NCBI GenBank assembly: GCA_918797485.1
Contig: CAKKNE010000004.1
Span: 1,550,001 to 1,614,000, forward strand
Direction: 5' to 3'
DNA from: Pelagomonas calceolata
Lineage: Eukaryota
Length of the DNA stretch: 64,000 bases
Shown here: positions 155 to 59,110 of the stretch, one piece after another
Numbering within the stretch: position 1 is the stretch's first letter
Layout: each line of letters opens with the position of its first letter
Notes under the pieces: generated by a model
What the model saw: only the letters and a program-made list of their open reading frames with translations
Databases searched by the model: none
What the model was told of the DNA's origin: nothing
Made by a program: the position numbers and the translations under genes

Positions 155-429
155 ATAGGAAGGGTATAAGGATAGGGGATAGGGGGTACCTACCGTGGCG
201 GTATTAAATCACACTTACCCTTTTTATACTACAAGTAAGGGTCACGGTAAGCACTTAAAGTTGCGAATGTGCAAGACCAAAGGAGTACGCACCTTTGGGA
301 GTACGGCGGCTGAGATAGTCTGCCGCGGAGCTACCTTAAATACACTAAGTAGTTTTGGTTTTAACTGTGTTTATTACGCGTTGCGTGTTGAAGGGTGATG
401 TAAGTGTATAGGAAGGGTATAGGATAGGG
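155..429. repeat. Short purine-rich direct repeat ATAGGAAGGGTATA(A)GGATAGGG, 2 copies (155-177, 408-429)
   Basis: Two near-identical 22-23 bp copies read directly; probably part of a repeat truncated by the window edge. Confidence 0.55.
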
Positions 430-1474
430 GGGGGGGTATTTCGCCCTATTTATCGCACTCCCCCTTTTCATGAGGGTAAGCTCTTGTTTCCCTTAGGAGA
501 ATATGGGGTGAAACTTGAAATTGTCCTCCATCCTTTTCGTTCGTTTCATTGAACTGTGCATTTTGGTATATATCATCAGGTAGCACATGGGCATTTGCCT
601 CTCAATGAATACACTTAATCCTCCACGTAAGAATTGGTAGAGTGTTCTGTAGGTTGGTTTGTGGTGGTCGTAGTTCGTGATAATGTAGCGTTGAGATGTC
701 GAATGATTATGTCAAATTCCTTAGTCGTCATACCCGCTGGGTTGCCGGCAGCTGCGCGCTGTTGGCTTACCGTTTTCTTCAATTTCCATTGCACCATTGG
801 CAACTTGAAGTTGTCTCTTGGCTTTCAAGTTATGAAAAGTACCAGTCTATCCTGGTCCTTCGTCTATCGAAATGTGCGTTGTGGCAATGAATGGACAATT
901 GACGCGCTCAGGCTAAAGCATAAAATTTTGATTTCCGATGTAAGTTCAAGTTCAACTTGACTCGGAAGTGGGGAACTTGAGTTTGATTTGTTCCTAGTAG
1001 TCTGTCCAGTCGCAGAATTGGATTCAGCGGCTGATTCGGCAGCTGATTGATTTCCGGACAATGCCAGTGGTACATTGTCAATGCTGCCTGCCAGTGCCAG
1101 TGCACGACCGGCGTGACCGTGACCGCCGTGACGCTGCTGCACGTATCTGCCATCTTTGTTGAAATGTATAGGAATTTCGAGCAGTGAATTCTCCGGGATT
1201 AATCTTGCTGTCGTCACGGCGCTGTTGGTATTATCATTTGGTTATGCCTAAGACTCGAGCCGCTGACGCCGCTGGTACCAGGTACCGTAGGTACGTTAAC
1301 GTGCGAGTGATACAAGGCCGGCAGCTGATAGTTTATGACACCAGGGCTGGAGTGGGAGGCTCAGAGTTGGTGAGAATATCACGTCGTATCGGAAAAATGC
1401 CGGAATAATGGGACAAACAAAGATAAAAAACCAGATAAGCACGTGATGGAAATTAGAGAAGCCAAGTGAAGTCA

Positions 1475-4400
1475 ATGTTGGGTCAGCTCAAAGCTACGTT
1501 TCGCTCAGCGCCACAGCATGATGATGAGCCTGAGGTTGAGTCGATTCTGAAGAAATCACGCTTCAATTTTTACCAGGAGTACGTCGAAGGGGTGCAACGA
1601 AGGAAGATGGAAGAAATGAAAAATGACTCAATCCTACAGGAACGGCTCACCCAAGCAACCGAGCGTGACTTGATGGAGAGTGAAGAGCAACTTTCTTGGA
1701 ATGCATATGAACTACCTTTGCGCAACCGAATGCGATTGATCAAACGACATTTGGACACACAACGTCAAGCTAAGGAAACACGGCTTCGACGTCTCAAGGA
1801 TGAAGTTCGACTGAAGGAGGAGGGTTTCACATACCACAATGGCGTCTTGAAGGAGTTTTCGCGATGGCGGGACTCACCAGCGTTGTTCCGCTACTACCAC
1901 GGACACAAGGGCCAGGTCTATGCTTTCAAAATGTCCGAGTCACTAGACTGCTTCCTCTCTGCGTCGGCGGACACAACCCTTAAGCTCTGGGATTTCACTA
2001 GTGGCACATGTGTCCGTACCTTTGAGGGCCATGGCAAGGCTGTACGCGACTGCGATCTGTCGCCAGGGTTCTCTATAAACAACCGCGGTGGACTTGGTCT
2101 CGCCGTTTCCTGTTCAACTGATAAAACTTTGCGCATTTGGGATGCGCGAACCGGCGGACTCCGTAAGGAGATACGGGGGCACACCGATGTGGTCTATGCA
2201 ACACGCTTTTCGCCCGACGGGCGTCAAATTTGCTCTGCATCTGCCGACTGCACCGTTCGCCTCTTTGATGCCCTTGAGGGCCACCTGAACTATATTTTTT
2301 ATGGTCATGAGTCTGCTGTCGTATCCATTTCCTACGCTCCATCTGGACGTTATATTGCAAGTTCTTCTGACTATGGTGAACGTGCTGTCAAGCTGTGGGA
2401 CGCAGATGTGCCCGCAACCAGAAGCGTGAAGCCAATCACCGTGCGTATCCAATGGACGCTTGAGGGTCTCATTTCCCGAATCACCCTTGTCACTGATCCG
2501 CCCAGAGCGCTTCTTGAGCCCCCCCAGAAAGATCGACTGTCAGACCATTTTAGTGAAAAGCGCCAGGATCCATGGGATCTGCTGACCGACGGCGAAGACG
2601 AAGAAAGCGAGCACGAACGTCGCCAGCGTGAGAAAGAGGAGAGCCGGAAGCAGTGTGATGCAGAACCTCGACTTCGAGAGTGCTCCATACAGACGGCCCC
2701 TGATGTCAAAGAGTCTGGTGGATTTACCTTGAGCGTTGCGTCGGTTGATCGATTTGGGCGATCAGCACAAGTGGATCAATACTATGGTGGGGTGACTCTG
2801 CAAATAATTTTGCGAGGTGTCAATGCTATAGCTGAGTTTTTTGTCGGCTCATACATAAAGAGTTCGATTCATGACACATTTATCGAAAACAGCGGTCGGC
2901 GCAGCGGTCAATTTTCATGCAGCTTGCCATTAGGAATTCGCCACTCATGCGATAGGGCAGCCATACATACAAGGCGCTTTGACGCTAAGTCTGAGATCAT
3001 TTTATCCTGGCAAGCGCCCTCCTGTGGTTCTGGGACGCTCATCATGCGGGCAAACGTCGCAGCTGCTGCCGAGAGCAATAACGAAATCAATCGAATTGCA
3101 CTGTCATATACACTTAAGGAGGTTGAGCCGCCGAGGAAGGGTAGTGTTCTCTCTGACCTCTCCCAACAGGCAACAACGCTAGGAGGCCATGCTACCATCT
3201 TCAACTTCACAGCTTCAATCCTCCACCAGCTCTTCATTGAGCTTATTCGCAATCGCGATACTGCTGAGGCATCAAATATGGTCAGTCCGGTGAGTCGGCT
3301 TAAGATTCGTGAAGGCCTGAAGCGTGGTGCCAACACGGCAGTTTACAAAGGCAAAGCTACTGTCATGGAGCAGGTAAGTGTCTTCTGTTCTACTCCACTC
3401 AGTAATATCGTGTTTGACTCGCAAACAATGGACTATAGGTGGATAGGTGGATGGCTAATGGAGTTTCAATTCTCAAGGATGCTAAGGACTTGTCGCCAGG
3501 TAAAAGTATGGGCGTGCTGCTCCATGGCGTGCCCCTGGAGTTGCCACCACCAATCAAGCAAGCTCTATCGAAGACCAGTGCCAGACCGATTTCTCAGGAC
3601 CTTGATCAAGCCAAGAAAGAGGTCTCACGCAGACAAGACTGGCGCAACAGAAGGCTTCAATGCTCTGAAGAGGTGCGATCGATGTGGGAGCCATCTGTAG
3701 AGGTAAGTGAGCTACCAAAGCCAGCCGCTGCGTCTGATTCATTGATTAGTGATGGTCGTTACGGTGGCAACTTGCCGCATTTGCAGATGCCGTTGCCATT
3801 TCTCTACCCCATCAACGCCAGGGGCTTTGGAACGCACGATGCTGCTCGCAAGGGTATTGAGGCCATGGACAGCCTAGGTAAGGATGACAACGGAATTGGG
3901 AGATTGGGTAGAGTGCAACGGTCTAATTCGGACCGCCAAGCCCAGGTTCTAGCCCTCTCGAAGTTTGCGCAGCTACGTGGCGTTGCGCAGAGAGCTGATT
4001 CCTCCAGACGTCGTGCTGCCCAGGTTGTTCTTCCTAGTTTTGAGAAGGCAGGCTCCGATTTGGGAACGGCAGGACACGTCCGTGCCAAAGCAGTGCTCGC
4101 TGCAGGTTTCTCTTTCCACCCCCTTCCGGACCGAATTGCGTACAAACGACTCTGTCAACTTCAGCTCGTGGCAAAGATGGCTCCAGTTACTTCACACCGC
4201 GGTGGTGTTGCTTTCCTGATGCACCAAACGGTCATCCAAGATGGGCAGAGGCATAATAATGATATTAGAGGAGGGACATTGTCAAAGAACGAAAAGCCAC
4301 TACTGCGGCGACGGAATTCTTTCCCAGCCCTTCCGGGTCTTACAGCCAAGCCAAAGTCAAAGCTACTAGACCGAAAGGATGAGACTAGATTCGCTGCACT

Positions 4401-6732
4401 TGCTCGCGTTGTCGGCGGCTGCCTTCGGACGTTCTGGGCCAGCAATGGTGACTTCCATTCTCATCACCACACGGTTAACCAAGTCGTATGGTCACTTGAT
4501 GAAAAACGGGTCGCATCTTGTTCAAATGACAAGACTGTACGTCTCTGGGCGCCCCAAACAGGCCAATGTGTACGTACGCTTGTTGGTCATGACGACGCTG
4601 TTATGGGATGTGCGTTTTCTGAGGATGGCCTCCGTCTTGTTTCTGCTGGTATGGATAACTTCCTCATACTGTGGAACACTGTGAACGGCGAAATGTTACG
4701 AAGATTCTTTGGTCACGACGACGTTATCTATCGTTGTGTACTTTTTCGTAACTCATCAGCCATGCTCTCGTGCTCATCTGATAGAACGCTTAAGTCTTGG
4801 TTCCTCACACCACAGCCACCCGATCCCCCGGCTCGACCAGCAGTATCAGATGCAGGCCAACGTGCCGCTCATGTTGCTTGGCGCGCCCCACCAGCTTACA
4901 ATGACGATATTGTTGCTTACAAGATACAATGGCGTGTCGGTCTCCGTGTGTCATTTAAGAACGAGACAACAGTTGATGGTTCAACTTTCAAAAAACAAGT
5001 TGATGGCCTCAGGCCGGGCCAGAATTACCAGTTCCGCATCTGTGCTGTTAATCGCATGGGCCAAGGAGACTGGTCAGAACCATCGGCACAGCACGTCACC
5101 CAGGTTGGCATCCCCGAGCCCCTCGAGCAGCCTGTTGTCATCCGGTCGTGGTTCCGTCCGCGTAGAATTGTTTTTTGCTGGCATGCGCCTCTTGCTACAG
5201 TCGAGGGTACAGCAATCCATCGGTTCCGGGTCCAATGTGCGGGCGAAGGTAGCGCCTTTGCCACTCGGCCTGACTTTGAAAAATTCATTACGTGGAAGGA
5301 GGGTCGTGCATTGGCACAGCACGTCGAGGCTGCCCTGAAAGACCAGATTCGAGAGGATGTGAACATCTGGCAGCGATCAGGACCTGCCACTAAGGGCAAG
5401 ACTTTCGAGGTCCCAGAGTGTGCCCTGGTCAAATTTAATCATGAGACGACTGCTATGGCCAATGACGAAAAGTTCTTGCCCGAGGAGCGCAATCCTAGAC
5501 TCCCCAGCATCAATCGGCGTTGGCGCCGCACTATCAAATGTGTTCCTCAGAATGAGCAGAAAAGACGAGACGACCTTCGATTTGCTAAATTGAACAAGGG
5601 AATTCTCATGGCCGCCGCATTTGATGAGCTCAAACCCGGGTTTGATTATCGTTGTCGTGTATCTGCAATCTCATCTGTTGGCGAGGGCCCATTCTCATTG
5701 CCAACATACAATGCCAAGACCCCTCCAGATTATCCGGCAAATCCGAGATGTCCCGTAGTCAAAGCGCTCTCTCAGACCGCGCTCAAGCTTAAATGGGTGG
5801 CACCGCTTGAGAATGGGTCTGCGATCATGCGTTTCCTCATTCGACGCAAGGATGTTACAAATGATGTTTCCGAATATACTCGACACGACTCAGAGGCGGT
5901 ATTTGACTGTCTCGAACCAGGGAAAAAGTACTCGTTTCAAATCTGTGCTTTCAATCAGATAGGACCATCCACCTGGAGCCCCTGGAGTGAGCCTACATCA
6001 ACACTTACAGCTCTCCCCAAGGTTCCGGAGCGTCCCACAGTCCTCGAAGCCACCATTACTGCGGTGACACTCCGCTGTGTTAAACCACATAACTCTGGCA
6101 AGATAATCTCGACGATTGTCGTTCAGCGGCGCGAGCTCCGACCTGGCGGTGTCAAGTCAGAATGGGCAAGCAAAACGAGATTCCCCCCTAACCCAGGTGG
6201 AACCGGAGTTGCTTGTATCTTTACTATTTCCCCCCTCGAACCGTACACGGTATACCAGTTTCGATGTGCTGCAATTAATGCGCACGGGCAGTCAGACTGG
6301 TCGCTACCATCATTCCGGATACGTACCTGCAAAGCACAACCGCCAGCTGCGCCCCAGCACCCAAGAGTTGCAGAGGTACACCCTGCAAGTGTACACCTCA
6401 TATGGATCGCCCCAGACCCTAAAGGGTGTCCGATAATTGGCCATGCTCTCGAACTCAAGCGCCTGCGCAGAGAGGTCGCGTTCTTAGATACACACGAGAT
6501 GCTTCAAACTGAAAGAAATGATGCCGCCAGCAACACGGATCGCGAGACTGATGGTATTGTCTCCTCGCTGGATATTGGCTACACGAACAAATATGAAGCA
6601 GAGAATCTCGAGCCCTCTGCGAAGTATATATTTCGTGTGGCTGCTTACAATGGTAAAGGGCAGGGCGACTGGTCCTGCTGGTCCGACACATTCACAGGTG
6701 GTTTCGCAATACCGTTGGAGACAGCACAGTAA
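1475..6732 (+). CDS. Large WD40-repeat / Reeler-like / fibronectin type III multidomain protein (~1730 aa, 2 exons)
   Basis: ORFs 1466-3700 and 3439-6732 join in phase 0 across a GT-AG intron at 3374-3438 (CAG|GTAAGT...TATAG|GTG). GH...WD repeats (GHKGQV...LKLWD, GHTDVV...VRLFD, GHDDAV...LILWN), several FN3 repeats (LRPGQNYQFRICAVNRMGQGDWS) and a Reeler-like segment (KSEIILSWQAPSCGSGTLIMRANV). Confidence 0.85.
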
Positions 6733-8020: not shown

Positions 8021-8170
8021 CCTACTGCACTAGTGAGCTAATCTCAATATAATTCGGCCCGGTTTGAAACCAGCTCGACGCAGCATCGGTGCTGACTCGA
8101 CGGAATGCGTTGGAATGATTGCATGAAGTAGGAGCCTTGACGGACAGGTTATGGTTCCAAGAGTACTATA

Positions 8171-9307
8171 CTTACATGGGGGGGTCACTAGGGGGAAACC
8201 GCCATTTTACCTCCGTCCTGCCCAGGCTGTGTGGCAATTGGGGCTGCCTGCGGCCCAAGGGTTGCATCTGGTACTGGCTGCGCCCCCGCACCTACAGCAC
8301 GCCGACGTGAGGGCGTCACATGCGAAGTTTCAGCAGCGGCGGCTGCCGAGAAGGGCTTCATCGACTGCTTCTTGATCTTGCGATAGGCGACGATCGGCCC
8401 CCCGCGAGTCAATATCGGGCGGATGACGCACTTTTTTGCGGAAAGCCCGAGTAGGCATGTTCGCCGGCCATTTGGAACGAAAAAGTGCGTCATCCACCCA
8501 CGGGACCACGCACTCATTCGTTTCCAAGACGGCCGCAAACAGGGCCTCGAACCTGCCGACACGGCGGTCTCTCGCTGGAGTAACGACCGGAATCGATGGT
8601 CGGCATGGTAGGCGACCTCCCACCGCCGCGGCGACGCTCAGAGGCTGCACTAAGGCCTCAAAGACATTGCCTCGAGATAGAGCAATTTGCTTTCGGATCT
8701 CCGCGAGCGAATATCGGGTGGGTAACCAATGTTTTGATGGATCGGCGTTCTAGGCTTACTCGACGGCCATTCCGAACGAAAAGGTTGGTTACCCACCCAC
8801 AAGATCATGCACTTATTCGTTTCCGAAGACAGCCGAAAATGGGCCCGCGACGGTGCATCTTACGGCGTTTTTTCGCTGGATTTTCCATCGCGATCCTTAG
8901 TCGGTATGGTTTGGCGCTGCCTCGCGGAGCCACGACGCTCAACGGCTGCGTTAAGGCCATATGCACACCATTTTGTGATATAGTACTTGTATAAATTTAT
9001 TAATTTTGTACCCGTCCCGGGACTGCGGGAGGGGTGGAGAGACCACTGAAAGAGACGTTTCGCGTGGAGGCTCCGATCCTCATAATAGCAAATTTTAGCT
9101 AAAATTGCTAAACGTTTTTGCCGTCGTTCTCGGCCAATATTGCGCCTGCGCGCAAAAGAAAAGCTGCCGAGGGCCGCGTGGGTGCTCACACGCCCACACG
9201 CACCGCGCACTGCCGCCGGGAAGCCGCACGGGCAGCCGCACGGACGCCAACCGCACATAGGACGCAAGTCGTATGGCGGTTTCCCCCTAGTGACCCCCCC
9301 ATATAAG
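8171..9307. mobile_element. Non-autonomous TIR DNA transposon (~1.14 kb, 35-bp TIRs)
   Basis: CTTACATGGGGGGGTCACTAGGGGGAAACCGCCAT (8171-8205) is the reverse complement of 9273-9307 with one mismatch. Contains a diverged internal duplication of ~300-bp period (about 8465-8660 vs 8765-8960). No clean TSD and no transposase ORF. Confidence 0.8.
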
Positions 9308-9789
9308 GTTAGTTCCTCTTGATGGTTCGAGGTCCCTTGACCCGCACGTTGCGCGTGGAGTGCACGACCGCCCTAGCCCGACGGATGGGTCCCGGGACGC
9401 CCATCCGGTTGTCTAGGCTATTTTTGCCGGTCAGACTTGTCTGTGGCCATGGTAGCGAAACGGCCATATGAGCTCCTCTGACGCCGAGTTTCAGCGAAAA
9501 CGGCCGCTGAAGGCCACGATCCAACACGGTCGCAAACTGGGGCACGGCTCATTTCAAGGCTTCTAGCCGCTGTTGGAGCAAGGGAGGCTTTGAGAAGCGC
9601 CGTCGAGGCAACTCCTAGCTCATTGGCTTTCCAGTTGTAACGACAAGGGATCACCTCGGATATACCAACAGGCACCTCACGTAGTTTTCTTATTTCTCGT
9701 GACGATTAGACGACTGGGCCCTTTGTCCGCGCCCGTGGTGCACGACTCAGCACCACGTGTGCTGTATAAATCCGGCCGAGCAAAACTAC

Positions 9790-15959: not shown

Positions 15960-16982
15960 CGAAACGATTTGGCCTGGCAATTTTAGTGGCCTGCGAACGT
16001 CGCGCCAGTGCCAGTGGAAGTGCCAGTGGCGTTTCGTGCCGCGTCAGGCGACCTATCTGCAGCCCAGCGGGCACCCGGCCGCGCCTACGCATCCTCCCTA
16101 CACCACAGGTACCCGAGGGCCCCTGGGGGACCAAATTACCAGCAGAATGGACTTCGCGGCGGAAAGTGACCCCTCTCCCCCCAGCCCGGTCGCGGGGCGT
16201 ACAAAGGGCTCTTTGGGACCCCGCAGCAAAATCGCCGCCGGCCAAGTGGCTGGTCCGACTCGAATCTCGAATATAATTCCGCAACAACATCTTGTCGTTG
16301 GGCCCTCGGGATTTCCTCGTTCGCCGCGTATACGACGGCCTGATGAATGATTCTAAAGGTCGCGGTTCGTCGAGGAACGGGGCTTTGTTCCTGGAAAATC
16401 TTGCGTTGGAAGCGAATTGGCCCGGGCCTCTGAAAAAACCGGCCGCGAAAAAGTTCGCCAATGAATACGTCGCATCGCGCCGAGTTTCCGAGCTCGCCGG
16501 CGGTTTCAAGAGAATGTCGACCCTTCATAATATGAGCAATTGGGTCGAGAAGGAACGTTTCGGCTTGCCGGAATATTTACTCAGAACGTGCCCCGCGTCT
16601 CTCCGGGAAGGGCGGAGGCTGAAAACGAAATTCCGATTGGGTTGCCACGATCTTCGAAGCTCGAGTTGTCGAATGCAGCTCGTCCGTAACGCGCAATGCC
16701 CTTGTTGCGAATCTCGCGAGTCGGAAACTATCCAACACACGTTGTTTGAATGCACAGCCTTTGAGGAAGAACGCGAGGTATTTCTTTCGAGATTATACTC
16801 GGTTCGCCCCCTCGCACGGCAATTGAATGATGAGTACCGTTGTCGGCTGGTCATGGGGCACAAGTTACCCCGGGAGATTGAAAAAACGTTGTATCGGTAT
16901 TTTATTGCTATTTCGAAGCTCCGGTTGGGTATCCTGACCGAGCAGGGAGAAGGCTCTTAGGAGCTTGTTCCTTTTTTTAGGT
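15960..16982 (+). mobile_element. 5'-truncated, degenerate non-LTR retrotransposon (LINE) 3' end
   Basis: ORF 16292-16960 carries KFRLGCHDLR…CPCCESRESETIQHTLFECTAF, the CCHC zinc knuckle that follows RT in LINE ORF2. Its 3' UTR (GAGCAGGGAGAAGGCTCTTAG…TTTTTAGGT) recurs at 63541 followed by (TTTA)n. The 5' boundary is approximate. Confidence 0.8.
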
Positions 16983-18522
16983 CTTCCTCCGACCTGACCT
17001 AGTTTGCGCGCGACTTAGACGTTGGAAAGCGTCCGAAACGTCCCGTCAGAAGCGGGAGTAAATTTATGGAGGTCTGAGGGGGGTCCGTGGCTACCTATGA
17101 CTACCTTTACTTCAACTTCAGGTTGACGTCACTGGAAGTTGAAGCCGAGATACTACGGAGAGCTAAAACCCGCGCGGTAGGGGGGCTGTAGTCTTGGAGG
17201 GCCCGCGCGCGGTGACGGGGGTGGTGCGGGTTTTCCTTGCACCAGAGAGTGCCCCCAACCCACCACCCGCGCTGGTATCCTATGATAATACGCCTAGCGT
17301 CCTAAAGGCCGCTCTCGGACGAGTTCGAATCCCCGCGGTCGGCGTCGCGGGCCATAAGTCCATTCCACTGGCGTGGCGCGTCGGCGCGTCATTCCAACGT
17401 CCGCTGGAATGCATACGTACGTCATACCGGTCGAATTTTGTCGATAGGTACCCAAGCGGCCCGCGATCGACATTCACCGAATATGCTCCCGACCGGCGCG
17501 GGTTGACATGTGGCGACGGATAGCTGGTGGACTCCTGGAGGTGCATCGCTGTTTGCGTTGGTCAGGCGCTTCTCTACCAGCAATTTGGAGATCTGTTCGC
17601 AGTCGCGCGCCGATTTAGGGCCTTCGCAGAGCACCAGGCTTTTGGGCACTCGCAGACCGCCGAGGCGGCTAGCTTTCAACGCGCGCTCTTTACGCCAGGC
17701 GCGGACGAGTTCCTAGGACCTCCACACGCGCTGGCGGCACAAATGCGGCTCCACGCTAGCCGTAGAGTGCCCCCAAAATGGCTGTCGACGTAGAAACCCG
17801 CGAGCTCAGGAGGCCCGGGGCTCGATCGCAAGTGATTTATCTTTAGCTTTGTCTTAAACTCCCCAGCCTTAGTGCTCTTCAGGCTGCTCCAAACAGCGCC
17901 ACCTCGTCGGCGTTTCGCCCACAGCAACGACGCACGACACGCTTTTCGTTTGGTTAGGGCGATGCACTGGCGGCCGGCGCGAGGATGTACGCACGGAGGA
18001 GCAAAGACTCGGCGTTGTTCGGCTCGGCGCTGCAGAAAACTAGTAGGATAGACCACGCACCTTGATGAAATGTAACGTTGCCAGAGTCCATTAAAGAAGA
18101 GAAGTCCGTGGGGCGAAATATTGGTTTCGACGCGGCCGCGGGTGGTCCAGGGCGCACTGCGCTCTCGCTGGACCGAGGTCGTTGGGGATCTACGTGTAGC
18201 GGTCGACGTCACGTCAAAATAATTCACGCATAGCTACGTGTACCATCCGCGACGCGCCGCGGGACGCTAATAGGTCATTTTTCCTATCTTGTTTTTCCTT
18301 TACCAGCATAGGCAAGTCGTCGAATGGAGTCTCTAACGGTGCTAAAACCGGTTGTAGATCGGCGTGAAATGGCTGTCCTAACTGCTGGACCATAGTCCTC
18401 GAGGCCCCCGCGTTTGCGTGTCGTTTCACCGACTCCGGTTTGATGTCGGAGTGGAGGACGTAGGTCGAGTACGGGTCCCTTTCCCCAAAACCCTACGCGC
18501 AAACTAGAGTGTGTCGCACTAG
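16983..18522 (+). mobile_element. Non-autonomous TIR element, family H copy 1, inserted between the LINE 3' UTR and its (TTTA)n tail
   Basis: Imperfect TIRs (…CCGACCTGACCTAGTTTGCGCG / CGCGCAAACTAGAGTGTGTCGCACTAG); long high-identity inverted match to 48221-48825 and 51901-52119. Confidence 0.75.
17779..18482. mobile_element. ~700-bp insertion nested in H copy 1, flanked by 8-bp duplication CCCCAAAA
   Basis: CCCCAAAA at 17771-17778 and 18483-18490; H copy 2 lacks this segment at the equivalent point. Its 5' part matches 21566-21710. Confidence 0.65.
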
Positions 18523-21565: not shown

Positions 21566-22630
21566 TGTCGACGTAGAAACCGCGAGGCTCGGGGCTGGTC
21601 GCCAATTGATTTTTCTTTAGCTTTGTATAGGTCTACGGCCTATGTGCTCATCAGGCTGCTCTTGTCACGCGTTTCGCCCACAGCAACGACGCCGCGAACT
21701 CGCACAAACGGCCCTCAAAAACCTGACAACAAAACCCGACGCTAGCCGAAGCTTCCTTAGGATCCTATGCCGCGCTAGCGTAAATATATTATGGTTCACG
21801 GCGGTTGATAGTACCCTCGCCTGCCGCGTTAAGCTGGGTTTGGTCAATACATCTTTCCCGAGCGCTCGAACGCGACCGCAGTGTCCGGGGGTACCCCACG
21901 CATGTGCCCGTCTAGCGATTTCTGCTACGACGCGCGCGGGGCGGTAAAGATAGCTGCCCCTGCGCGTTCCAATGGCTTCAGTCCCTTCTCGGGCAGCCTC
22001 GGCTCAGCGAAATTTTTTCGCGGGGAGCCTCACGATGCCCGCTAAGGGCGCGTCGAAGGGCCGTACTTCAGGCCAGCTTTTCTCGGCCGCATCGCGTGTG
22101 CACTTGTCACGACCAACGCGGCTGGGTAGCCCTGGCTATGGGCTTTCCAGCGCACCAACCCGTGACAAGTGCACACGCGATGACGCTGAGCTAGCCGGAT
22201 GTAAATCCCCCACTGCGGCGGCCCTCAGCCCGCTGCTCGAAGCGAAGCTCGCGTCCGGCGCAACCCTCGACGGGTCGGCCGGGCATCCCTTTTCGAGAAG
22301 AAGAAGGAGGGAGGTCCATGCGACCACCTTACCGTGACTCTGTCCTAGCCCGACGAATGGGTCCCGGAGGAGCGGGAGCGACTAGGGGGTCGCGCGCCGT
22401 GTAAAACCCGAACCCGAACCCGCTGAGAAAATGGGCCGCTATGACGCCGGACTCGTCGTGCACGCGGACGCAATGGTTGATCGACGCTCGGGCAACGTGG
22501 CAAAAAATCGCCAGACGCATGTGTTAAAAAAGCAATGCGTCGGGCACATGCGTGGGGTATCCCGGAAACCGGAGATAGTATCGAAAGTTTAATGGTGGAA
22601 CCGTCTCTTCCTCCTATAGACCTACGCAAC
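21566..22630. mobile_element. GC-rich repeat element with nested internal inverted repeats
   Basis: The 5' end matches 17783-17940. Inverted pair 21886-21910 / 22541-22565 (1 mismatch) and perfect 22-bp inverted pair 22090-22111 / 22161-22182. The right boundary is approximate. Confidence 0.6.
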
Positions 22631-22992
22631 GCAGGGCCATCAAGGTACCCCGGGGCCGGTACTCCCGAGTCTCACAGTCGCAGGTGGGGGCCAAGCAAAG
22701 GGCCTTAGGCGCGGGCGTGGTACGATGAAGTCTGGACATCAATAATTATGTCCAAACAAGAGCCTGAGAAGCGGCTCCGAGTCCAGAGGGTGACTCGGAA
22801 GTTAGGGGGGCGGCATCTCCGAGTCCGCGTCGGTAGTGCATTTTAGCTTGGCTTTTAGTATTATTTTGGCATCATTCCAGCCTAATAGCCATCATGCGCG
22901 CCAAGCGTATACCGTGTACATCGGTACCTACGGTACGATTCTACTTCTAGTAGCATGCGTACTAGAATGTAGAGTTGTACCTGGCCATGTAA

Positions 22993-28840
<5,848 letters not shown>

Positions 28841-29935
28841 TACTGAAAGCGCGAACTCTATACTTTGGTTAAGCACCAGCAAAGGGGTCGTTGAACAAAG
28901 CACCAGGTACCTCGCCGCTGCACTCACGCTAGACTTTGATGGCGAGTTCTGACGTACACTAATCTTGGACAATTGCAACCACCACTCTGTTGACCTTGAA
29001 AATACTGAAGGCGAAAGGGGAACTGGAGAAGACGAAGAATTGCACCCAGCACTACAACGTGCTTTGCATGCTGATTAGCGTTTATGGACGCAGTGCGAAC
29101 TCCTGTCGCGGTCACGGTGGCCACAGTCTGCCAGTGAGTGTCACGGTGACTGGCACGGTACAGAACTACTCGGATACGGGGCCTTTTGGGGGCGTCAGAT
29201 CGCAACAAAAGTGGTAAAAAAATCGTTTTAAGGTGCAATGGAAATACACGTCTAGTAGGATCCGAGTCCCAAGGTTCAACTGAGACGTATCCAAGCACAA
29301 CCCGTACTTGTATTACCCGCTTAGCTTACTTCCCATCCTAGGGTACTCCGATATCCCCTTAGTAGGGGGAAGTCGCCTCTCACTCCTAACTATTATCATC
29401 CTGAGTCACTTTTATTGACGGACGCAATTCCCCGTCACAAACCCCATCAAACATGGGAGAAACTATTTCGTTAGACGACTACACTACGCTGCCGGGGAAG
29501 TCCGGAGCTACACACTCTATTTCCCTATGCATCGCATAAGGACAAGCCAGACCGCTACGCGCGGCGGGCGACCTACCCGGCCCAGGTAAACAAGGGCGGG
29601 CCGCAGCATAAGAACGCACCAGTGCCAGTGATTCAAGTTGGACTTGAACTTTGAACGTACTACCAGGATCGGCCCTCGTTCGACACCGCCTTGTGCTTCA
29701 TGTTCTACTAGTAGTACTTCAAGTTAGTAAATATTAGTTTATATAGTTTGAAATTAGACTGCCAGCGAAACCGAGCCAACCCGGATGTTCATTCACATTG
29801 GGGACGCCCCGCCGGCGGAATCGCACTCGGGGGGGGTCGACGCTGGCCCGAAGACTTGCGCCAAAAAACTTACACCATCAGATTTTTTTAACCCTCACCG
29901 CTTGCCATTCAAGCATAAAATTCGCTGGTTGTATA

Positions 29936-47900: not shown

Positions 47901-49340
47901 GACCGGCGCTTTCAAATAGTTTTGGGTGGCTCGCTCAGATTTATCGAAACCAATACCAATAGCCTGAGCACGGCAGTAATCTTGAAATGTTAGACGTGTT
48001 GATGGCTTGGTAAGCAGATCCGCCGGATTTTGCTGCCCGGGCCATCGATGTGGTCACAATGAGTCGTGGTTGAGCTTGATATTCGCGCCGCGGGCAGAGC
48101 ACTCCAATTTTCAAATATCGCCCGGCGGCCGCGGCCCCCGGGCCGGGCCGGGGCTGTGGCCTACTAGTAGACACCATGCAGAGCTAGGACCCAAGTAACG
48201 CCGCGTAATTCTTCCTTCTACTAGTCCGACTCACCCTAGTTTGCGGTGGGGTTTGGGGGCTCTCACGGCCAGCGCGGAGGCGCATTTGTGCCGCCAGCGC
48301 GTGTGGAGGTCCTAGGAACTCGTCCGCGCCTGGAGTAAAGAGCGCGCGTCGAAAACTAGCCGCCTCGGCGGTCTGCGAGTGCCCAAAAGCTGGTGCTCTG
48401 CGAAGGCCCTAAATCGGCGCACGACTGCGAACAGATCTCCAAATTGCTGGTAGAGAAGCGCCTGACCAACACAAACAGCGCTGCACCTCCAGAAGTCCAC
48501 CAGCTATCCGTCGCCACATGTCAACCCGCGGCCGGTCGGGAGAGCATATTCGGTGAATGTCGATCGCGGGCCGCTTGGGCACCTACCGATAAAATTCGAC
48601 CGGTATGACGTACGTATGCATTCCAGCGGACGTTGGAATGACGCGCCGACGCGCCGCGCCAGTGGAAGGGACTTAAGGCCTGCGACGCCGACCGCGGGAA
48701 GTCGAACTCGTCCTAGAGCGGCCTTTAGGACGCTAGGCGCACTATCATAGGCTATATTCGAATACCAGCGCGGGTGGGGGATTGGGGGCACTCTCTGGTG
48801 CAAGGAAAACCCGCACCACCCCCCCAGCGCGGTGATGCTGGGGGCGCGTCGGCGGCGGCGGCCGGGCGCCCTAACGCCAGTACGAGGGTGGGGGCCGCGG
48901 CCCTGATGCGGAGGGCGGCCGTTAGGAGGGTGTGGACGCCCTTCTCGGGGTCGCCGTCGAGGTTGATGTCGCCGACGGCCGTGACTATGTCCTTGACCGA
49001 GTCGTCGGCCATGTTGTCGTTCGGGGGCGTCGCCGGCGGCGGCGCGGCTCTCGTGGGCCTCTGTGGGCGCCCCCGGGTGGCCCTGGGCGGGCGGGGGGGC
49101 GCGCGCGGGCGCGTGTGTCGATCGGCGAGGGTTTCGCAGATTTTCGCGGGGGCGCCGGTTTCGTGCGTGAAACGGGGCGCGCCGCGTCCCTACGTGGTTC
49201 TGAGGCGGCCTGAGCCTCAGCAGACAGCGATGGATCGCGTAGAGTTGCAACCACGGTGATGCTGGTATGCGAGAGTTAGTAGGGGGATCGAGGACTAGAG
49301 CGTGCGGGTATCAGCGCAGCGCGCTGGCCCTCCAAGACTA

Positions 49341-51062
49341 GGGGGGGTGACACCAAAATTGGAGCTCGGGTTCTCGACGACGAGCAGTCCCGGGGATTTC
49401 TCCGGAGAGAGGCGTCCAGCCGGCTCGTCAACCAAGCTTCGCGTTTGGGGAGGGCGGATTCGGGACCCTAAATATTGCCGCTTTTGGCCGTCGTCGTGCC
49501 ATTAAGCGCCTCTACCGAACCGCAGGCTGCTCCTACGCAAAAACTTCATCGATGGCGCACCATCAGTGGGTGTTGGTGCCGGCGTAGGAGCAGCCCCGAT
49601 GAAGTTTCGGCACGCCGCGGCTGCGCATGCGGCGGAGATAGTTTCATCGGTCGAGCTTCAGGGTTGGGCCGTTTTTCAAAACGCATGCGCAGCCCGAAAA
49701 AAGTTGTCTAGGAGTTGCCCGATGAGGTTTCGAGCCGCGGCCGCGATTCCTTTTCAGCTATTCCAGCGCTGATAGTCCGCCAGCGGCCGCGCCGCCCGCG
49801 CGGCGCGTCCGAGTCCCGCGAACGACGTAAACGGGGCCAAAGCGGCCACGAGGAGGACGAACGCGTCAAAATAGGTGGTCAAGGCCCACGCATGGTACAC
49901 GAACGAAGTCCTGCGACGCTCCATCTGCCCAGTCGGCCCCCAAATCGCTTCAAAATGGCATTTCGACCTCGTTTTGGCATGTTTTTGCCTCACCACGACC
50001 CGAAATCCCCCTAAGCGCCGGTAAATTTTGTCTGAATGTACCCCATAGAACCCACAGAGAACTACCCCGGGACTGCTGAAGCAAGGCTCATCGAGGTCTT
50101 GCGCTAGAACCCAGCCTGGGGGAGGGGGGCACCCAGGGGCACCCGGTTTTGGCCGGTTGCTTCCGAAGCACCTGCAATCCGGAGAGGCCGTCTGGGGACT
50201 CCTCTGGGGGCACAAAAGCGGCCCTCAACTTTTCGTGGGGATTGGTACGACTGATGCAGCTACTGATGCTAGCGCCCCATTTTAAGACGCCGCGTGTGCG
50301 CCATGCGGGCCTAGCTGCGGAGGCTGCGGCGGTGCGCCGGCCCAAGCACCCCATCGACTACACGAGGGGGCGCCCACTTGGCATTTGATGCGGGCTGCGC
50401 ATAGAACGCGGACGCTGAACTCGGCGTTTTTCCTAAAACGGCAAATCGTTATACGCGGGCGATGAGGCCAAAATCGTCACAATAAGGTCGTATGGGACCA
50501 TACGAGGCACACCGCGGCCTTAGTTTGCTCAGATTGGACCGGTGGTGCGCGTGAAGGCCCGGCCGAGACGTCGAGAGCGTTGTGTACAGCGGGCTGAATG
50601 GCGGCGCTGCAGGGTTGTAGACCTCCGTAGCGGCCACAGACCCAACCGAGGGGTTATGTGCGAGGTCCGAAGCGGCCGAACTACTGCCGGGGGCGATTTT
50701 GACCTTGCATCCCGCGCCGCGGCGGTCACCGAGACACAGTAATCAATCTGTTTTTCTTATGATAAGGCCGCTGCCCTACGCTCGAATGACCCCTCCGATC
50801 ACATGCCTCGTGCACGGATTTAGGCTATCTAGCGTCGGGAGCTAGGTCGGCTGGTCTAGGGGGGTGCCCCCCCCCTGAGCCTCTGGTGCGTAAAGACCCC
50901 ACCCCTCTTTTACGTCGTCAAAGGGGTACCACCCCTCTCTCCTACGTCGTTCGGGGTGCTACCCCTTTTTCCTCCCGAAAAAAGAGAGAAAACGGGTTTT
51001 ATCGAAAAGGGTGCGGGGTCTTTACCCGCCAGCCTGAGCCTGGGGTTAGTGTCACCCCCCAT
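49341..51062. mobile_element. Mutator-like non-autonomous element A (GGGGGGTGACAC termini, 9-bp flanking duplication CCAAGACTA)
   Basis: Terminal inverted GGGGGGTGACAC/GTGTCACCCCCC; CCAAGACTA at 49332-49340 and 51063-51071; the empty site is visible in H copy 1 at ~17181-17203. Confidence 0.75.
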
Positions 51063-51084
51063 CCAAGACTAAGCAGCTAGACTA

Positions 51085-51879
51085 GGGGGGGTGACACCAA
51101 CCCCAAACCGGTTCTAGCGCAAGACCTCGATGAGCCTTGCTTCAGCAGTCCCGGGGTACATGTAGTTCTCTGTGGGTTCTATGGGGTACATTCAGACAAA
51201 ATTTACCGGCGCTTAGGGGGATTTCGGGTCGTGGTGGGGCAAAAACATGCCAAAACGAGGTCGAAATGCCATTTTGAAGCGATTTGGGGGCCGATTGGGC
51301 AGATGGAGCGTCGCAGGACTTCGTTCGTGTACTATGCGTGGGCCTCGACCACTTGTATTGAAGCGTTCGTCCTCCTCGTGGCCGCTTTGGCCCCGTTTAC
51401 GTCGTTCGCGGCACGCACCGCGCGGCCGCTGGCGGACTATCAGCGCTGGAATAGCTGAAAAGGAGCGGGCAGCGCGGGTCGGAACCTCATCGGGTAGCTC
51501 CTAAACAACTTCTTTCGGGCTGCGCATGCGTTTTGAAAAACGGCCCAACCCTGAAGCTTGACCGATGAAAATGGGCAGCCCTTTTTTGATGCGGCGGCGT
51601 GCCGAAACTTCATCGGGGCTGCTCCTAAGCCGGCACCAACACCCACTGATGGTGCGCCATCGATGAAGTTTTTGCGTAGGAGCAGCCTGCGGTTCGGTAG
51701 AGGCGCTTAATGGCACAACGACGGCCAAAAGCGGCAATATTTAGGGTCCCGAATCCGCCCTCCCCAAACGCGAAGCTTGGTTGACGAGCCGGCTGGACGC
51801 CTCTCTCCGGACAAATCCCCGGGACTGCTGAAAGAGGCGTCGCCGGAAACCCGAGCTCCATTTTGGTGTCACCCCCCAT
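51085..51879. mobile_element. Mutator-like element B, internally deleted inverted relative of A (9-bp duplication GCTAGACTA)
   Basis: Same termini as A; 51111-51879 is an inverted copy of 49341-50110; GCTAGACTA at 51076-51084 and 51880-51888. Confidence 0.75.
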
Positions 51880-52561
51880 GCTAGACTAAGCACTTAGACT
51901 AAGCTCCCCTACCGCGCGGGTTTTAGCTCTCCCGTAGTATCTCAGCTTCAACTCCCATTGACGTCAACCTCAAGTTGAAGTAAGGGTAGTCATAGGTAGC
52001 CACAGACCCCTCTCAGACCTCCACAAACTTACTCCTACTTCTGCTGTGATCTTCCCGACTCGGACGCTTTCCGACGTCTAAGTCACGCGCAAACTAGCCT
52101 GAGGTCAGGTCGGAGGAAGTAAGATTTGGACGCATCCTCCATGAGCCCTAATTAAGATAAAATAAATTTCCCTGCGAAGCTTAATACTGCGTGGAGTTCG
52201 ACATTTAGAGAGGGGTCAAGCGCAATAGTCGACGTTGATTTTATCATGATATTTGGCGCAATGCGCGTAAAACCACGCGCCGGCCGAATGGCGGGAAACT
52301 TCTGCTGAGGCGCAGGTTCCGTACTAGTATGCTAAAATAACTTGAATGGGCTGACCAAAGAATGCAATGCGTGAACAAGACGACCATCGGCACACCACCT
52401 CAACCTGGCTTCTAAAATGGGCTGAGCGGCACACCACCCCAACCTGGCGTGCTACGAGAAAGGCCGACAATTCAAGGAACTAACTGTAGATGTACCATTA
52501 ATTTTATAGATTGGTACATACATAATATCAGGCTATATAATATATCGTCTCTCAATCGCCA

Positions 52562-53134: not shown

Positions 53135-53650
53135 TTATTTGTCGTGGAAAGCCTCAGCGACGGAAAGGCCACCTAGCTGCCAGTCTATTATGTGGCTCTT
53201 ATATGGCTGGTCACCATCATGTATTGCCGTAGAGTATTGCCGTCATCGACGCCGTCATCTACCCGCAATTCTCGTAGTGTAAATGGGGCCTAGTATGGGG
53301 CCTTTTGCATTTTCGAGTTTTACTAGTACTACTAGTAATTCAAGTTAGATCCGAGTCTTGGTTTCTGGCTGGCCCGGGTTCTGAGGGTTGGCGTTGAGCC
53401 AACGCGAGTCCTATACGGTATACCCCAGAAACCCCGTTGATGAAATGGATCTAACACTAATATCGGGACCAACGGCACCGACCAGCCTGAGTGCCCTGAC
53501 CGAGGGGCCCGGCCCGGTCCCGGGGGGCGGGAGGTCCTGAGCGAGTCTAATCGATCAGAAAATTACCGGCTTCTTCGGATAAGCCTCCTAGTTGCATGCT
53601 GTTGCGATTGCGAGCAAGGTGTGCACTCTAGGTGTGCGCTTATGCGCCGT

Positions 53651-54032
53651 CTAGGTTGCCATTAACCGCTTAATAACCGGTAATTTACCTATTAGTACCC
53701 CTCGGAGGGGATCCGGGGTTAATAATCCGCTCAATAACCCGACGGGTTTTCGACTAAACCCGTTTAGTGAGATTAGTGAAGACCTCTCCGGGCGAGCGGA
53801 TGGGCGCAAGCAGCCCGTTGAGCTTTTGGATACGTACAGGTACGCCAAGGCAAGTGCCAGGTCATGTGGCCCGGCACGGCCCAGGCCCGCGCGCCAGTGG
53901 GCCGTGAGGCCCCCTCCCCTACCCCTCTATAAGATCCTGAGGTAAATAACCCGTACTAACCGGCAATTACCCGGGTTATTAACCCCGGGCGGCGCCAGGG
54001 GGTAATAACCCCTCAGGTAAATGGCAGCCTAG
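53651..54032. mobile_element. hAT-like MITE (382 bp, 17-bp TIR, 8-bp TSD TGCGCCGT)
   Basis: CTAGGTTGCCATTAACC … GGTAAATGGCAGCCTAG (2 mismatches); TGCGCCGT at 53643-53650 and 54033-54040; several subterminal TAA(T)AACCC/G motifs at both ends. Confidence 0.85.
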
Positions 54033-54220
54033 TGCGCCGTGCGGCCCGTGCTCGTGCTGCTATTGAGCTGCGTGGCCACCAAGGCCTTGTTTAGGCGCTC
54101 TGCCTGCGTAAACTGCACCCTAGGGCATTTAACTTACCCGGGGCGACAACGTAGCGGGGAGTCCTCGTCTCTCTCTCCCTAGACGCATGTTCAGCGACCG
54201 GAGCAAAGGGCCCTAGCCAG

Positions 54221-57200
54221 CTACAAGTCAGCTTCGATGATTTTCTCTTGGACGTCAGTCACCATGGAAGCTGGAGCTTCAACCATGGACATGTCATTGA
54301 CCCCAGAGCTCATGCTTGCCTGATCGACCGGTGTTGGCTGCGGTCGGGCAGCTTCTGCCTCAATAGTGATTCTGTCCACATCGTCGGCCAGTGACGCCTG
54401 CTCATCTCTTGATTTATTCCGGTAGACAACCATGGCCAAGATGAACAGAACAGCAGCTCCGGCAACAACACCACCAATGATGCCGGCGCTAGCCGCGTCG
54501 ACCCCCCCTCCCGAATTGCTGCTTGAACTCGACCCGGAATCGCTGCTTGAACTCGACCCGGTCGATCCCCCCCCATCCGTGGGCCCCCCATCCGTGGGCC
54601 CCCCATCCGTGGGAGCAGTGGGGCTAATTGGCGAGGTAGGGGTTGAAGTTGAGGGTCTTGGTGTGGGCATGTCCTTGGTGGGCATAGGCGTGGGAAAGGC
54701 TCCAGTGGGCATTGGCGTGGGTCTTGGCGTGGGTTGCTTTGTCGGCCTTGGCGTAGGAAAGCCACCCGTAGGTTTTGGCGACGACGTCGGCACCCACGTG
54801 TCTGTGGTAGGCATTTGGGACGGTTCGTGGGTATCTACTGTACCCACAGAAATGCCAAATAAAACGAAAGCCTGGTGGGCGCCCGGTTCGCCAACCATCA
54901 GATCGTCAATGCCGTCATTATTGACATCAAATGTGCCAAGAGCGACAGCCGCACCGGCCTGCGCTCCAAGATTAGTACCAGTAAGAGCAAAACCATCGCT
55001 GCCATCCAACATGCGAACATCAATACTGGCATGCGCCGGAACCAGGCTAGCAGAACCAAAAACAACATAGGCGGTGCCGGGCTCCGAAGCCGTACGGTCA
55101 AGGCCGTTGGACGCACCAATAAGAATGTCGTCAAGACCATCGTTATTTATGTCCCCGGCACCTGCGACAGCTGAACCAAGCGCACCTCGTCGTAGGGATG
55201 AAACGATAGGCATGGCCTTCTTTGTATTCTCCTTTTTCTTCCAGTTATCAGGTTTGCCAAGCATGATGTATACCATGCCCGAGCCATGGTCAACGCCAGG
55301 AGCTCCGACGAGGAAGTCAGCATAGGAGTCGCCATTGACGTCACCAGCTGCGGAAACAGCAACACCAATATAACGCTCCTCGCTGTCTTTATCTCCCCCC
55401 TCAGATGAGGTGAACGTCATGAAGCCTGGACTGTTATCGGAGTCTGGATCGAGATCGTCGCACTTATATTCAGCGGGGGCATCATCATTGCGCATATACT
55501 CGTTACCAAAAACAACACAGACAGTAGCAGCAGCAGGTGCTCCAACCGCCACATCATCATAGCCATCGTCGTTGATGTCGCCGATGCCGGCAACCGATGA
55601 TCCGAGGTCAGATTGGTCATGGGTGAGGCGAAATCCCTCGGTCGGACCAAAAGTCGTAGCATCAACAATTGAAGCTGATAAGGCCGTCGAAGCCATCCCA
55701 TAATATACATAGGCGCAACTAGACTGCGGGGCGCCGATGACTACATCGGCATAGCCGTCATTGTTGAAATCAAGAGTCGAGAGAGATGACCCAAAACCGT
55801 CGCCGTTCGACCCGCCTTGCAGTTGGATGTAGTCAACACCAAGCATCATGTCGCTCTCTAGAGAAATGATATTAGTTTCCGGAAACCCATCACCTCCAAA
55901 TACTACAAAAACTGTGCCCGTGCTGTCATTATCCGCCGGACAGGCCAACGCCATGTCGTCATGGCCATCAAGATTGAAGTCTCCCGCTGATGCAACGACT
56001 TGTATACTACAGGGGGCTTCTATGGCTGCACCGACGAAGTTGCCAGAAGTCTGTGTGGTGATAGAGTTGAGATCGCCCGCAAAAATATCATCGTTGGCAG
56101 CGCCGTAAATCAGGTAAGCTTTGCCATCGGCGGCCGCGACGAAGTCATCAATACCATCAAAGTCAACGTCACCAATGAATGCTATAGAGGGGAGCGTTTC
56201 TTCTCCGCGCAAGATAGAACCCGCTGACATCCCTTGTATGGAGCTCAGGGCAACTTTAGAGGGAAAGGGGAGCTTTTCGTTGCCCAGAGAGTAGGTCGGA
56301 CGCGAAGGAGCGGGCGTGGGCATTGCAGATGGACCAGTGGGCATTGTTGTGGGTGCCTTGGAATTAAAATGTTGGCCAAATATGACGTAGGCATTGCCTC
56401 CCTTGTTAGAGGCAGAACCCTTCTGGAATACCGATGAAACTATGATATCATCTATACCGTCATTGTTGAAATCGGCGGCCGCGGCAACATCGAAGCCAGC
56501 ACCGTCGCCAGAGTGTTCGCCATACATGGTAAAGCCATCGAAACCGTTAAGATCAGAAAGATCAAAGGTTCCCTTTTTCTTGGACCCTCCAAGCACACAA
56601 TAGACGGTACCAGCCATTTCGCGCGCTTGGGGAGATGAAGTAAAGGCCCCGATGAGCACATCGTCGAGGCCGTCACCGTCTACATCACCTGCGCTGGAGA
56701 CGGAGTAGCCAGCCATGTCCTTAGCAACATCGCCACGAAAGGAGATGTCAGCCCGGACAGTTGGGCCGAAGTGCTTGCGGCCCAGCACTATGTAAGCAGC
56801 ACCCCGACGATGTTCAAAGCCTGCCGCGCCAACAATGATGTCTCCGTAGCCGTCACCATTGAAGTCGCCAGCCTTTTTAACATCACCACCACAAAGATCG
56901 CCCTTTTTGGCACCAAGTATGCCAAACCCGTCGGAGCCATCCATTTCGTCTAGAAATAAAGTGCCGTGGTATTGAATACCCCCAAATATCACAAACGCCG
57001 CACCGCCATCTCCGTACTGGGGAGCGCCCACTGCGATATCGTCATGACCATCACCATTCACGTCATCGAGTGCCGCCATCTCGAGACCCAGCAGGGCTTT
57101 CTTACCGGCACCATCTTTATTCTTCAGTGCAAGAATTACACCCCGTGGGTTCATCGACCCGCCCTTACCAGCAAGATTTTGGAGTGGTAGGATCGACCGG

Positions 57201-58499: not shown

Positions 58500-59110
58500 A
58501 TCATGATAGGGCCACCGTGAGCGCCCGGGCCTCAGGCTCTATACCAACTTACTGCGGTCACGGTTACTGCGGCGCGGGTCACGGTGTCTAGCTGTACGTG
58601 CCCGCTTAATGACCCTCACAATTCTGAGCCACACGAGATACATCCTCCAGTAGAAGAGGCCGCTTATGTTCCGAGTCAACGGTTGGACGTCACGGTTTCA
58701 AGTTGCGTCCAGGGGGAGCCTGAGTAGAGAGAGAGGAACCCTTTAGCCTGAGCCCATCCTACTAGTACCCTAGATATGTATCTCTCACTCTGTAAATTGA
58801 GTCCATACATTGCCAGTGACTCGGAGTGCCAGTGTCTATCGACGGCGACTCGGACCGTGACCGTCACGGTTACGCTAGTACTCACTGGCACTCAGGCTGG
58901 CAGGCTCAGGCCCGGGCTATGTCACGGTAAACCAGCCTGAGCTTATAATACAACACTCTCGTAGTGGGTTAGCGCCAGTTTTCTGATTGAGCAGCTAGGA
59001 CCCTGCTACTTTACATAACGCTGCGACATACTCTTGCTACGTAGGTACCACGGTACCGTAGGTACCGTAGGTACAATACCGTAGGTACCGTGTACGGTAC
59101 CTAGGTATGT
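58500..59110. repeat. Mosaic tract of XY-C-rc(XY)-G-XY octamers followed by TA-centred (TACCGTA/TAGGTA) iterations
   Basis: 22 rule-obeying octamers counted in 58500-58941; GGTACCGTAGGTACCGTAGGTAC array at ~59041-59107. Confidence 0.85.

Follow-up and report, generated by a model that had tools for sequence, protein, structure and literature searches.

In the reactions of RAG and Transib, hairpins on the flanking coding ends are opened near the tip, and RAG nicks at the border of its element and leaves no element base behind. The usual opening position is about two bases beyond the tip. Chapaev elements generate a 4-bp target duplication. The hairpin footprints of Ac/Ds, as outlined in one account (PMC5873905), are palindromes whose centre complements the flanking base, and mariner footprints are described as retaining the target duplication plus bases of the element (PMC4561436). 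Elements of the CMCT kind are summarized as having duplications of 2–5 bp, CA..TG ends in most cases and a core like that of RAG1 (PMC12730594; PMC12810828), and an active RAG-like element with a 5-bp duplication, AanRAGL, is recorded from the pelagophyte Aureococcus (PMC9435367).

The scar analysed here is an 8-mer of the form d-C-rc(d)-G-d, in which d is any dinucleotide, found in a 64-kb stretch of Pelagomonas calceolata DNA (the whole stretch analysed, hereafter the window). By analogy, the process behind it appears to work like hairpin-type transposon excision. With hAT elements (Ac/Ds, Tam3 and Hermes), as far as they are set out in PMC5873905, it shares joints with odd palindromes, P nucleotides added in short runs, joining through microhomology and a small set of dominant products; unlike them as described, it has a centre that is always C/G whatever the flank, where a hAT centre complements the base of the flank, and a duplication of 2 bp instead of the usual 8 bp. 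A hAT-type centre is ruled out by the flanks, which offer C before plus G after at 4 of 75 sites, and by the empty site at 52096, which has no such G, and a hAT duplication of 5–8 bp is ruled out because only the 2-bp form is enriched, the GTAC family described below apart.

Tc1/mariner and Stowaway elements likewise carry a 2-bp duplication on both sides and leave bases of the element end, and the shorter products d-C-d and d-G-d found here resemble the two ways in which a terminal mismatch can be repaired, as outlined for mariner (PMC4561436). In contrast to Tc1/mariner as described in such accounts, the scars show no TA specificity (TA serves as d in 6 of 97 non-genic words, with 4.7 expected), one base is left, and the main product bears an inverted copy of the duplication. 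Tc1/mariner footprints hold bases of the element end; the fixed C/G here is not copied from the flank and may come from such an end. Flank hairpins opened near the tip, here inferred, would be shared with RAG/Transib, a RAG-like element of which is reported as active in a related alga; the duplication given for those elements is 5 bp, and the window has no 5-bp form. As they are described, CMCT elements (EnSpm/CACTA, Mirage, Chapaev, Transib, Plavaka and ESTA) match the 2-bp duplication, and the 4-bp duplication of the GTAC family; their ends are mostly CA..TG, that is C...G, and the first base C is read here from the scars alone. A terminal C kept in the flank hairpin does not figure among the traits given for CMCT in PMC12730594. 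Judged by the features tested, the scar belongs to none of hAT, RAG/Transib or canonical Tc1/mariner; it is consistent with CMCT.

Results

The scar word and its controls

The window contains 110 words of the form d-C-rc(d)-G-d, with all 16 choices of d present, compared with 17–28 expected from Markov models of order 2–4 and 20.7 ± 4.6 (maximum 34) in 60 block-wise dinucleotide shuffles; 15 alternative pairs of centre letters give 14–49 words each. Non-genic DNA (26.2 kb) accounts for 97 of the words, versus 10.8 in shuffles and 5–37 for the control pairs, whose high counts come from G/C-rich repeats, and the 37.8 kb of genes hold 13, which is background (control pairs 8–18). The enrichment is confirmed as real and beyond chance, the chance share being about one in nine of the non-genic words. 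Recursive stripping of the window removed 109, 4 and 2 events in rounds 1–3, and no control centre pair exceeds one second-round (nested) event. Forms with a fixed centre and a duplication of 1, 3, 4 or 5 bp show no enrichment in the window (GTAC family apart), and longer palindromic additions at dinucleotides number only 3–4 cases each. Repeat motifs compared with viral and prokaryote collections gave 0 matches.

Pairs of empty and filled sites were found both among alleles and among repeat copies, with the target duplicated: relative to the empty site, each 8-mer amounts to 6 bp added at a dinucleotide of any kind (d). The choice of d tracks background dinucleotide use, and the flanks carry no motif. 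Flanks with C before plus G after occur at 4 of 75 sites, about 5 being expected; because the flanks supply this pair so rarely, the fixed C/G would have been brought in from outside, so that the inverted part of the scar reads as a copy of the flank and the C/G as coming from elsewhere.

The window, its genes and its alleles

The window has a GC content of about 50% and carries protein genes for WD40/fn3, Rpa2, axonemal dynein, 14-3-3 and FG-GAP proteins; the nearest named homologues of its proteins are from pelagophytes. Sequencing runs that contain the window come from cultures of a single organism and from marine metagenomes. ANAPC4, dynein and Rpb2-domain genes are located in the window region, and accounts of P. 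calceolata describe gene-rich centromeric regions of 52% GC with such genes (PMC9481584; bioRxiv 2024.10.30.620910), which the window region resembles. For these low-GC regions, PMC9481584 proposes a recombination-poor status and reports that transposon build-up is absent.

A scan with the WD40 protein confirmed 498 stretches, of which the best 80 were kept (79 loci); among these, L001–L005 match at 100% identity, L006 at 97% and L007/L008 at 84–85%, the other 71 being distant WD40 proteins. The WD40/fn3 gene itself (positions 1475–6732, forward strand) lies downstream of a scar cluster, comprises two overlapping ORFs and carries scars at background level; in the related L008 it is a single ORF of 1763 aa. 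The split in the window lies at 3377–3700, where about 70 extra bases that begin near a GT donor motif are probably an intron. The FG-GAP repeat ORF (54221–58363) has a COX17-like CX9C stretch in frame at its start (58027–58129), and an unassigned 1616-aa ORF is armadillo-like (a weak lead) and not a transposase.

Several larger elements and repeats share this DNA. Dispersed repeat families lie at 48219–48823, 16983–17777, 53588–54080 and 58766–59074, with about 5 to 100 copies as judged from contig depth; many of them end in CTAG, possibly a Helitron-like end. An inverted-repeat element of 1.16 kb, whose ends are CAAG...CTTG and which is flanked by a 7-bp duplication, is present in the window (8159–9321) and in L004 (16724–17890), and its site is empty in L002 (7390) and L003 (16697). 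The letters of the 7-bp duplication differ between the window/L002 background and L003/L004, which suggests that the element entered this one site twice, independently. A 2.56-kb element with 770-bp inverted arms (49341–51901) interrupts a dispersed repeat at the motif AGACTA, contains a second pair of similar ends and is absent from other copies of the host repeat. In L006, an inverted-repeat element of about 460 bp (6218–6690) with a 10-bp, Mutator-like duplication bears a scar-free copy of the repeat found at 52118–52340 of the window. Alleles upstream of the scar cluster differ wholesale: about 530 bp of the window (268–796) is missing from L003/L004, and the upstream ends of L001/L002 and of L005 run into different repeats.

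A scar cluster upstream of the WD40 gene

All seven strings that the original prediction had singled out were present where it placed them. The region 901–1130 holds seven words and one hidden one, a total of eight events against 0.05 expected (at most 2 in 2000 shuffles). Its nested scar (954–967) consists of an outer AACTTGAA (d = AA) interrupted by an inner GACTCGGA (d = GA, 959–966), and three natural states of the site exist: empty in L003 and L004, outer only in L005, and outer plus inner in the window, L001 and L002. The claim that the outer event preceded the inner one is borne out, in that alleles with zero, one and two events fit this order. At the tandem pair of TGCCAGTG (1089–1102), L003, L004 and L005 have one unit, the window and L002 have two, and L001 has two plus a nested GTCACGGT; L005 has four events of its own within a few bases on the left side.

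Elsewhere in the cluster, CTCAGGCT (907–914) is present in the window and L001–L004, with no empty allele seen; TTCAAGTT (945–952) has an extra AGCCTGAG directly upstream in L005; and TGCCAGTG (1062–1069) occurs in all six alleles. A threefold array of ACCGTGAC (1105–1132) holds two +3 scars, CG-G-CG at 1109–1113 and CG-C-CG at 1124–1128, and insertions of this kind hide the units that they interrupt from an 8-mer scan, the word at 1116 noted originally being the sole intact unit in the window. The array consists of three clean units in L003–L005; the first +3 is present in the window, L001 and L002, and the second in the window only. Further upstream (802–831), scars AACTTGAA at 802 and TTCAAGTT at 824 are accompanied in L003/L004 by a further +6 at 818 and a +3 at 823. 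An 18-bp insertion beside the 802 scar in L004 (9339–9356) does not parse under the rule.

Across 782–1474, the six alleles differ by 21 distinct indels, 18 of which belong to the scar family by our reading of the alignments: 11 of +6 (two of them with a mismatch in at least one allele), five of +3, one of +5 and one GTAC +9. The three outside the family are of +18, +4 and +1. Substitutions relative to the window in 820–1474 number 0–16 per comparison, and the coding region (1475–6732) has zero indels in five comparisons. Because nearly every allele has private events, the scar-making process is recent or ongoing.

Sibling products and the GTAC family

Besides the +6 word, sibling insertions of the form d-C-d and d-G-d (+3) were found, and in polymorphic d-N-d insertions outside microsatellites N is C or G in all. 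In four +3 cases (850, 1111, L005 and 58879) the base before d differs from the inserted base, and for this reason these four do not represent slippage. The inverted-copy product is the commonest among polymorphic events (11 versus 5).

A second family, GTAC-C...G-GTAC, is represented at 1275–1294 by a +7 unit and a +9 unit, the latter absent from L003–L005, and at 59045–59103 by an array of units of +8, +9, +9 and +12. Further sites lie at 22924 in the window and in the related-species locus L008 (7339–7490 and 9873–9900), stacked into arrays. In this family the C is followed by 0–3 bases, and the G preceded by 0–4 bases, of inverted flank; the +9 unit is polymorphic twice. Palindromic additions are thus graded in both settings (+3, +5 and +6 at dinucleotides; +6, +8, +9 and +12 at GTAC), as hairpin opening would give. 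The rule does not cover the GTAC +7 unit or a TACATG insertion at 51157. The latter, of 6 bp, lies in one arm of a large inverted repeat (TA-CATG-TA; 51151–51164 compared with 50063) and may be a TA-type footprint.

The densest hot zone and repeat copies as empty sites

The densest hot zone (58500–58941), between two divergent genes, packs 25 events into 442 bp, and scars make up a third of its DNA. PolyA reads over it number 0–4 outside the repeat pieces, in the roughly 6% of one run that was read. The original prediction had named a second nest at 58905–58918, which is real and was under-called: it is the tail of a six-event nest (58881–58918) in which 38 bp collapse to a single CT in three rounds. 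Under random re-insertion, a nest of six events has P 0.003–0.008.

For TCCGAGTC (58670) and AGCCTGAG (about 58716/58717), within 58670–58724, a haplotype without each 6 bp is present in marine metagenome runs X12 and X14; the same haplotype carries an extra AGCCTG after 58654, and an X14 contig shows two more nested cases near 58791. Dispersed repeats provided further empty sites. A second window copy (near 17000) of the repeat with AGCCTGAG at 52096–52103 lacks exactly these 6 bp; TACTAGTA and AACTTGAA at 52322–52346 are both absent from the L008 copy of their repeat, and in the L006 copy the first is absent and the alignment stops at the second (52339). The 6 bp of TCCGAGTC at 29261–29268 are absent from the L001 copy, and two TGCCAGTG units (16009 and 16021; within 16003–16028) belong to an 18-bp stretch absent from the L008 repeat copy. 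For the repeat of about 100 copies at 58766–58979, loose ends match the stripped window sequence when compared by eye.

Re-hits, ordering and stripping

The original prediction held that the process hits the same spots repeatedly. For a null, each region was stripped, an equal number of events was re-inserted at random and overlaps were counted. In the window only, 10 re-hits compare with 3.7 expected when re-insertion may occur anywhere in an intergenic interval (P 0.002) and with 7.8 at cluster density (P 0.25). When the window was pooled with the L003 upstream region, L006 and L008 (164–183 events), 19 re-hits were counted against 11–12 in tight clusters (P 0.016–0.033) and 7.4 in wide ones, an excess that is if anything overstated, as the window and pooled counts include a doubtful G/C-only four-step nest at 48127–48152, which a filter for G/C-only words left in; in the pooled counts one nest common to L003 and L006 was entered twice. 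Pooled nested cases number 10, versus 7.6–8.4 in tight clusters (P 0.21–0.34) and 5.1 in wide clusters (P 0.03), and pooled tandem cases 9, versus 3.5–3.9 (P about 0.01). Polymorphic events fall in or beside an older unit in 9 of 17 cases; the corresponding P is 0.012 for a unit coverage of one quarter of the zone and 0.10 for 35%.

Hot zones of 200–500 bp mostly account for the nesting, and a modest extra tendency to re-hit may reflect slippage or finer hot spots; base-exact re-targeting is weakly supported. Repeated hitting of the same spots is supported in part, through the tandem excess, and nested cases lie near the random expectation at hot-zone density. The comparison with random overlap that had been proposed as a refutation is split in the same way: nesting in tight clusters occurs at about the random rate, and tandem units exceed it, with slippage as a possible source.

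The further proposals, that events can be ordered in time and the ancestral sequence recovered by recursive removal, are borne out by the wild alleles, within limits. Nested events can be ordered, as the empty, single and nested alleles of 954–967 illustrate, whereas tandem units cannot; earlier allele states are recovered by stripping, but exact stripping is blocked by +3 and +5 variants. In 15 pairs of alleles with 510–550 bp shared, stripping left fewer gaps in 12, an unchanged number in two and more in one, the sole pair that worsened being blocked by a +3 unit. The expected improvement in alignment was thus seen between alleles but not with the intergenic DNA of related lineages, which is still unalignable.

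The rule in related lineages

Coding identity to the window is 91% for L006 and 74% for L008. L006 contains 16 words against a control mean of 3.4, and L008 contains 47 against 8.7; both have nests of their own, and the AA/GA nest recurs at an unrelated site in L008. Scar positions in L006 and L008 are unrelated to those of the window, and the rule is unchanged. The upstream DNA of L006 and L008 gave no alignment with that of the window, whether or not scars had been stripped. Unrelated loci totalling 533 kb show no excess (214 words; controls 146–256). All of the DNA studied for scars is one syntenic low-GC region.

Discussion

We consider it probable that the scars are repair footprints of a cut-and-paste transposon that leaves by way of flank hairpins. 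In this model, the element would enter without sequence preference and duplicate 2 bp (d). At exit, the first nick would fall one base inside each element end, so that the terminal C stays on the flank, where it would be joined to the opposite strand to give a hairpin d-C-rc(d) on each side. A host nuclease would then open the hairpins near the tip, and end-joining would seal the break. If both hairpins were opened two bases past the tip, the ends could pair via rc(d)/d to give d-C-rc(d)-G-d; openings at +1/+1 or +2/0 would yield the same word, and opening at the tip would give d-C-d or d-G-d. One product would dominate because a +2 opening on both sides gives complementary 2-base ends. The scars would pile up in intergenic zones of 200–500 bp, probably open chromatin, and nests would record order because later events land in earlier scars within these zones.

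The element is most likely of the CMCT kind (CACTA/Mirage/Chapaev-Transib) or a relative of Tc1/mariner with relaxed target choice. A search of the window and scanned loci gave no clear case of an inverted-repeat element that combines C...G ends with a 2-bp duplication. In the small sample of five alleles (2.6–13 kb each), none holds an element where another holds a scar, and no transposase domain was found in 39 ORFs (25 + 14), so none of the DDE type with the C(2)C and H(3–4)H motifs of CMCT elements. The entries listed in the published Pelagomonas gene table, made from repeat-masked DNA, include one Tc1-like DDE gene and an SNM1/Artemis-family gene, and no CACTA, hAT or RAG-like gene is among them. 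A 664-bp segment of the window (21894–22557) with 17-bp perfect inverted ends that start CCCC, flanked by TA (or GTAC/GTAT), is a possible non-autonomous element of the GTAC family with ambiguous boundaries. In the text of the accounts that were compared, we found no enzyme described as both leaving its own terminal base and hairpinning the flank; the CACTA footprints of PMC3193017 and PMC6379663 are given in figures. In a literature in which subscription papers were thinly covered, no description was found of this scar or of footprints in pelagophytes. What is new is the fixed C/G centre together with a hairpin-type inverted copy of a 2-bp duplication; hairpin-type excision itself is known.

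The same words might be written by a host enzyme instead of a mobile element, which we regard as unlikely: breaks with a 2-base stagger, made by a Spo11-like enzyme or a domesticated transposase and perhaps mainly in centromeric low-GC regions, would be filled in, tailed with a single C, closed or folded back into a hairpin, and rejoined. Spo11 does cut with a 2-base stagger, which fits, and the rule is constant across lineages 26% diverged in coding DNA, which is long for one transposon family; no element was found in the window or scanned loci. An invariant single C at both ends is nevertheless most easily understood as the templated terminus of an element, the sister GTAC family, which shares the C/G but duplicates 4 bp, has the look of a second family of transposons, and this DNA also contains polymorphic inverted-repeat elements of other kinds. 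The setting cuts both ways, as the region is like the gene-rich centromeric low-GC regions described for Pelagomonas but such regions are proposed to be recombination-poor (PMC9481584). Were a host enzyme responsible, the scars would form a self-nesting six-base tape with an order readable like that of an engineered lineage recorder. Still less likely is excision without an enzyme-made hairpin, by which mariner-type 1-base C overhangs would be folded back by host ligase or polymerase to give the +6 unit. The commonest polymorphic product, the inverted copy (11 versus 5), is not the mariner pattern, and TA is not preferred (6 of 97, with 4.7 expected), even though d-C-d and d-G-d are the products expected after mismatch repair as outlined in PMC4561436 and a Tc1-like DDE gene is annotated in Pelagomonas.

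Two readings without any element seem to us very improbable. A break-free origin, by slippage during replication or by template switching at palindromic words, may account for some of the tandem units, which exceed random re-insertion (9 versus 3.5–3.9, P about 0.01), but slippage cannot create an initial unit, nor a nested one made of another word, and the flanks offer no template for the C and G; for single and nested units it is ruled out by the empty alleles. Selection of the words as promoter motifs would suit their clustering a few hundred bases from gene starts, and is ruled out as their origin: all 16 words are used in proportion to background dinucleotides, individual alleles gain them separately, one word interrupts another, and their positions in related lineages are unrelated.

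If the words are transposon scars, as we favor, they form a readable record of past visits by the element, and would measure past transposition where no element remains. The cutting chemistry that they predict, a nick one base inside the element and a flank hairpin, would stand between those of mariner and hAT/RAG. Within the zones that are hit, wild alleles differ in length mainly through scars (18 of the 21 indels in 782–1474). The host is likely among the most abundant algae of the open ocean, and such nearly deterministic, nesting scars may serve as ordered markers of its population history in metagenomes.
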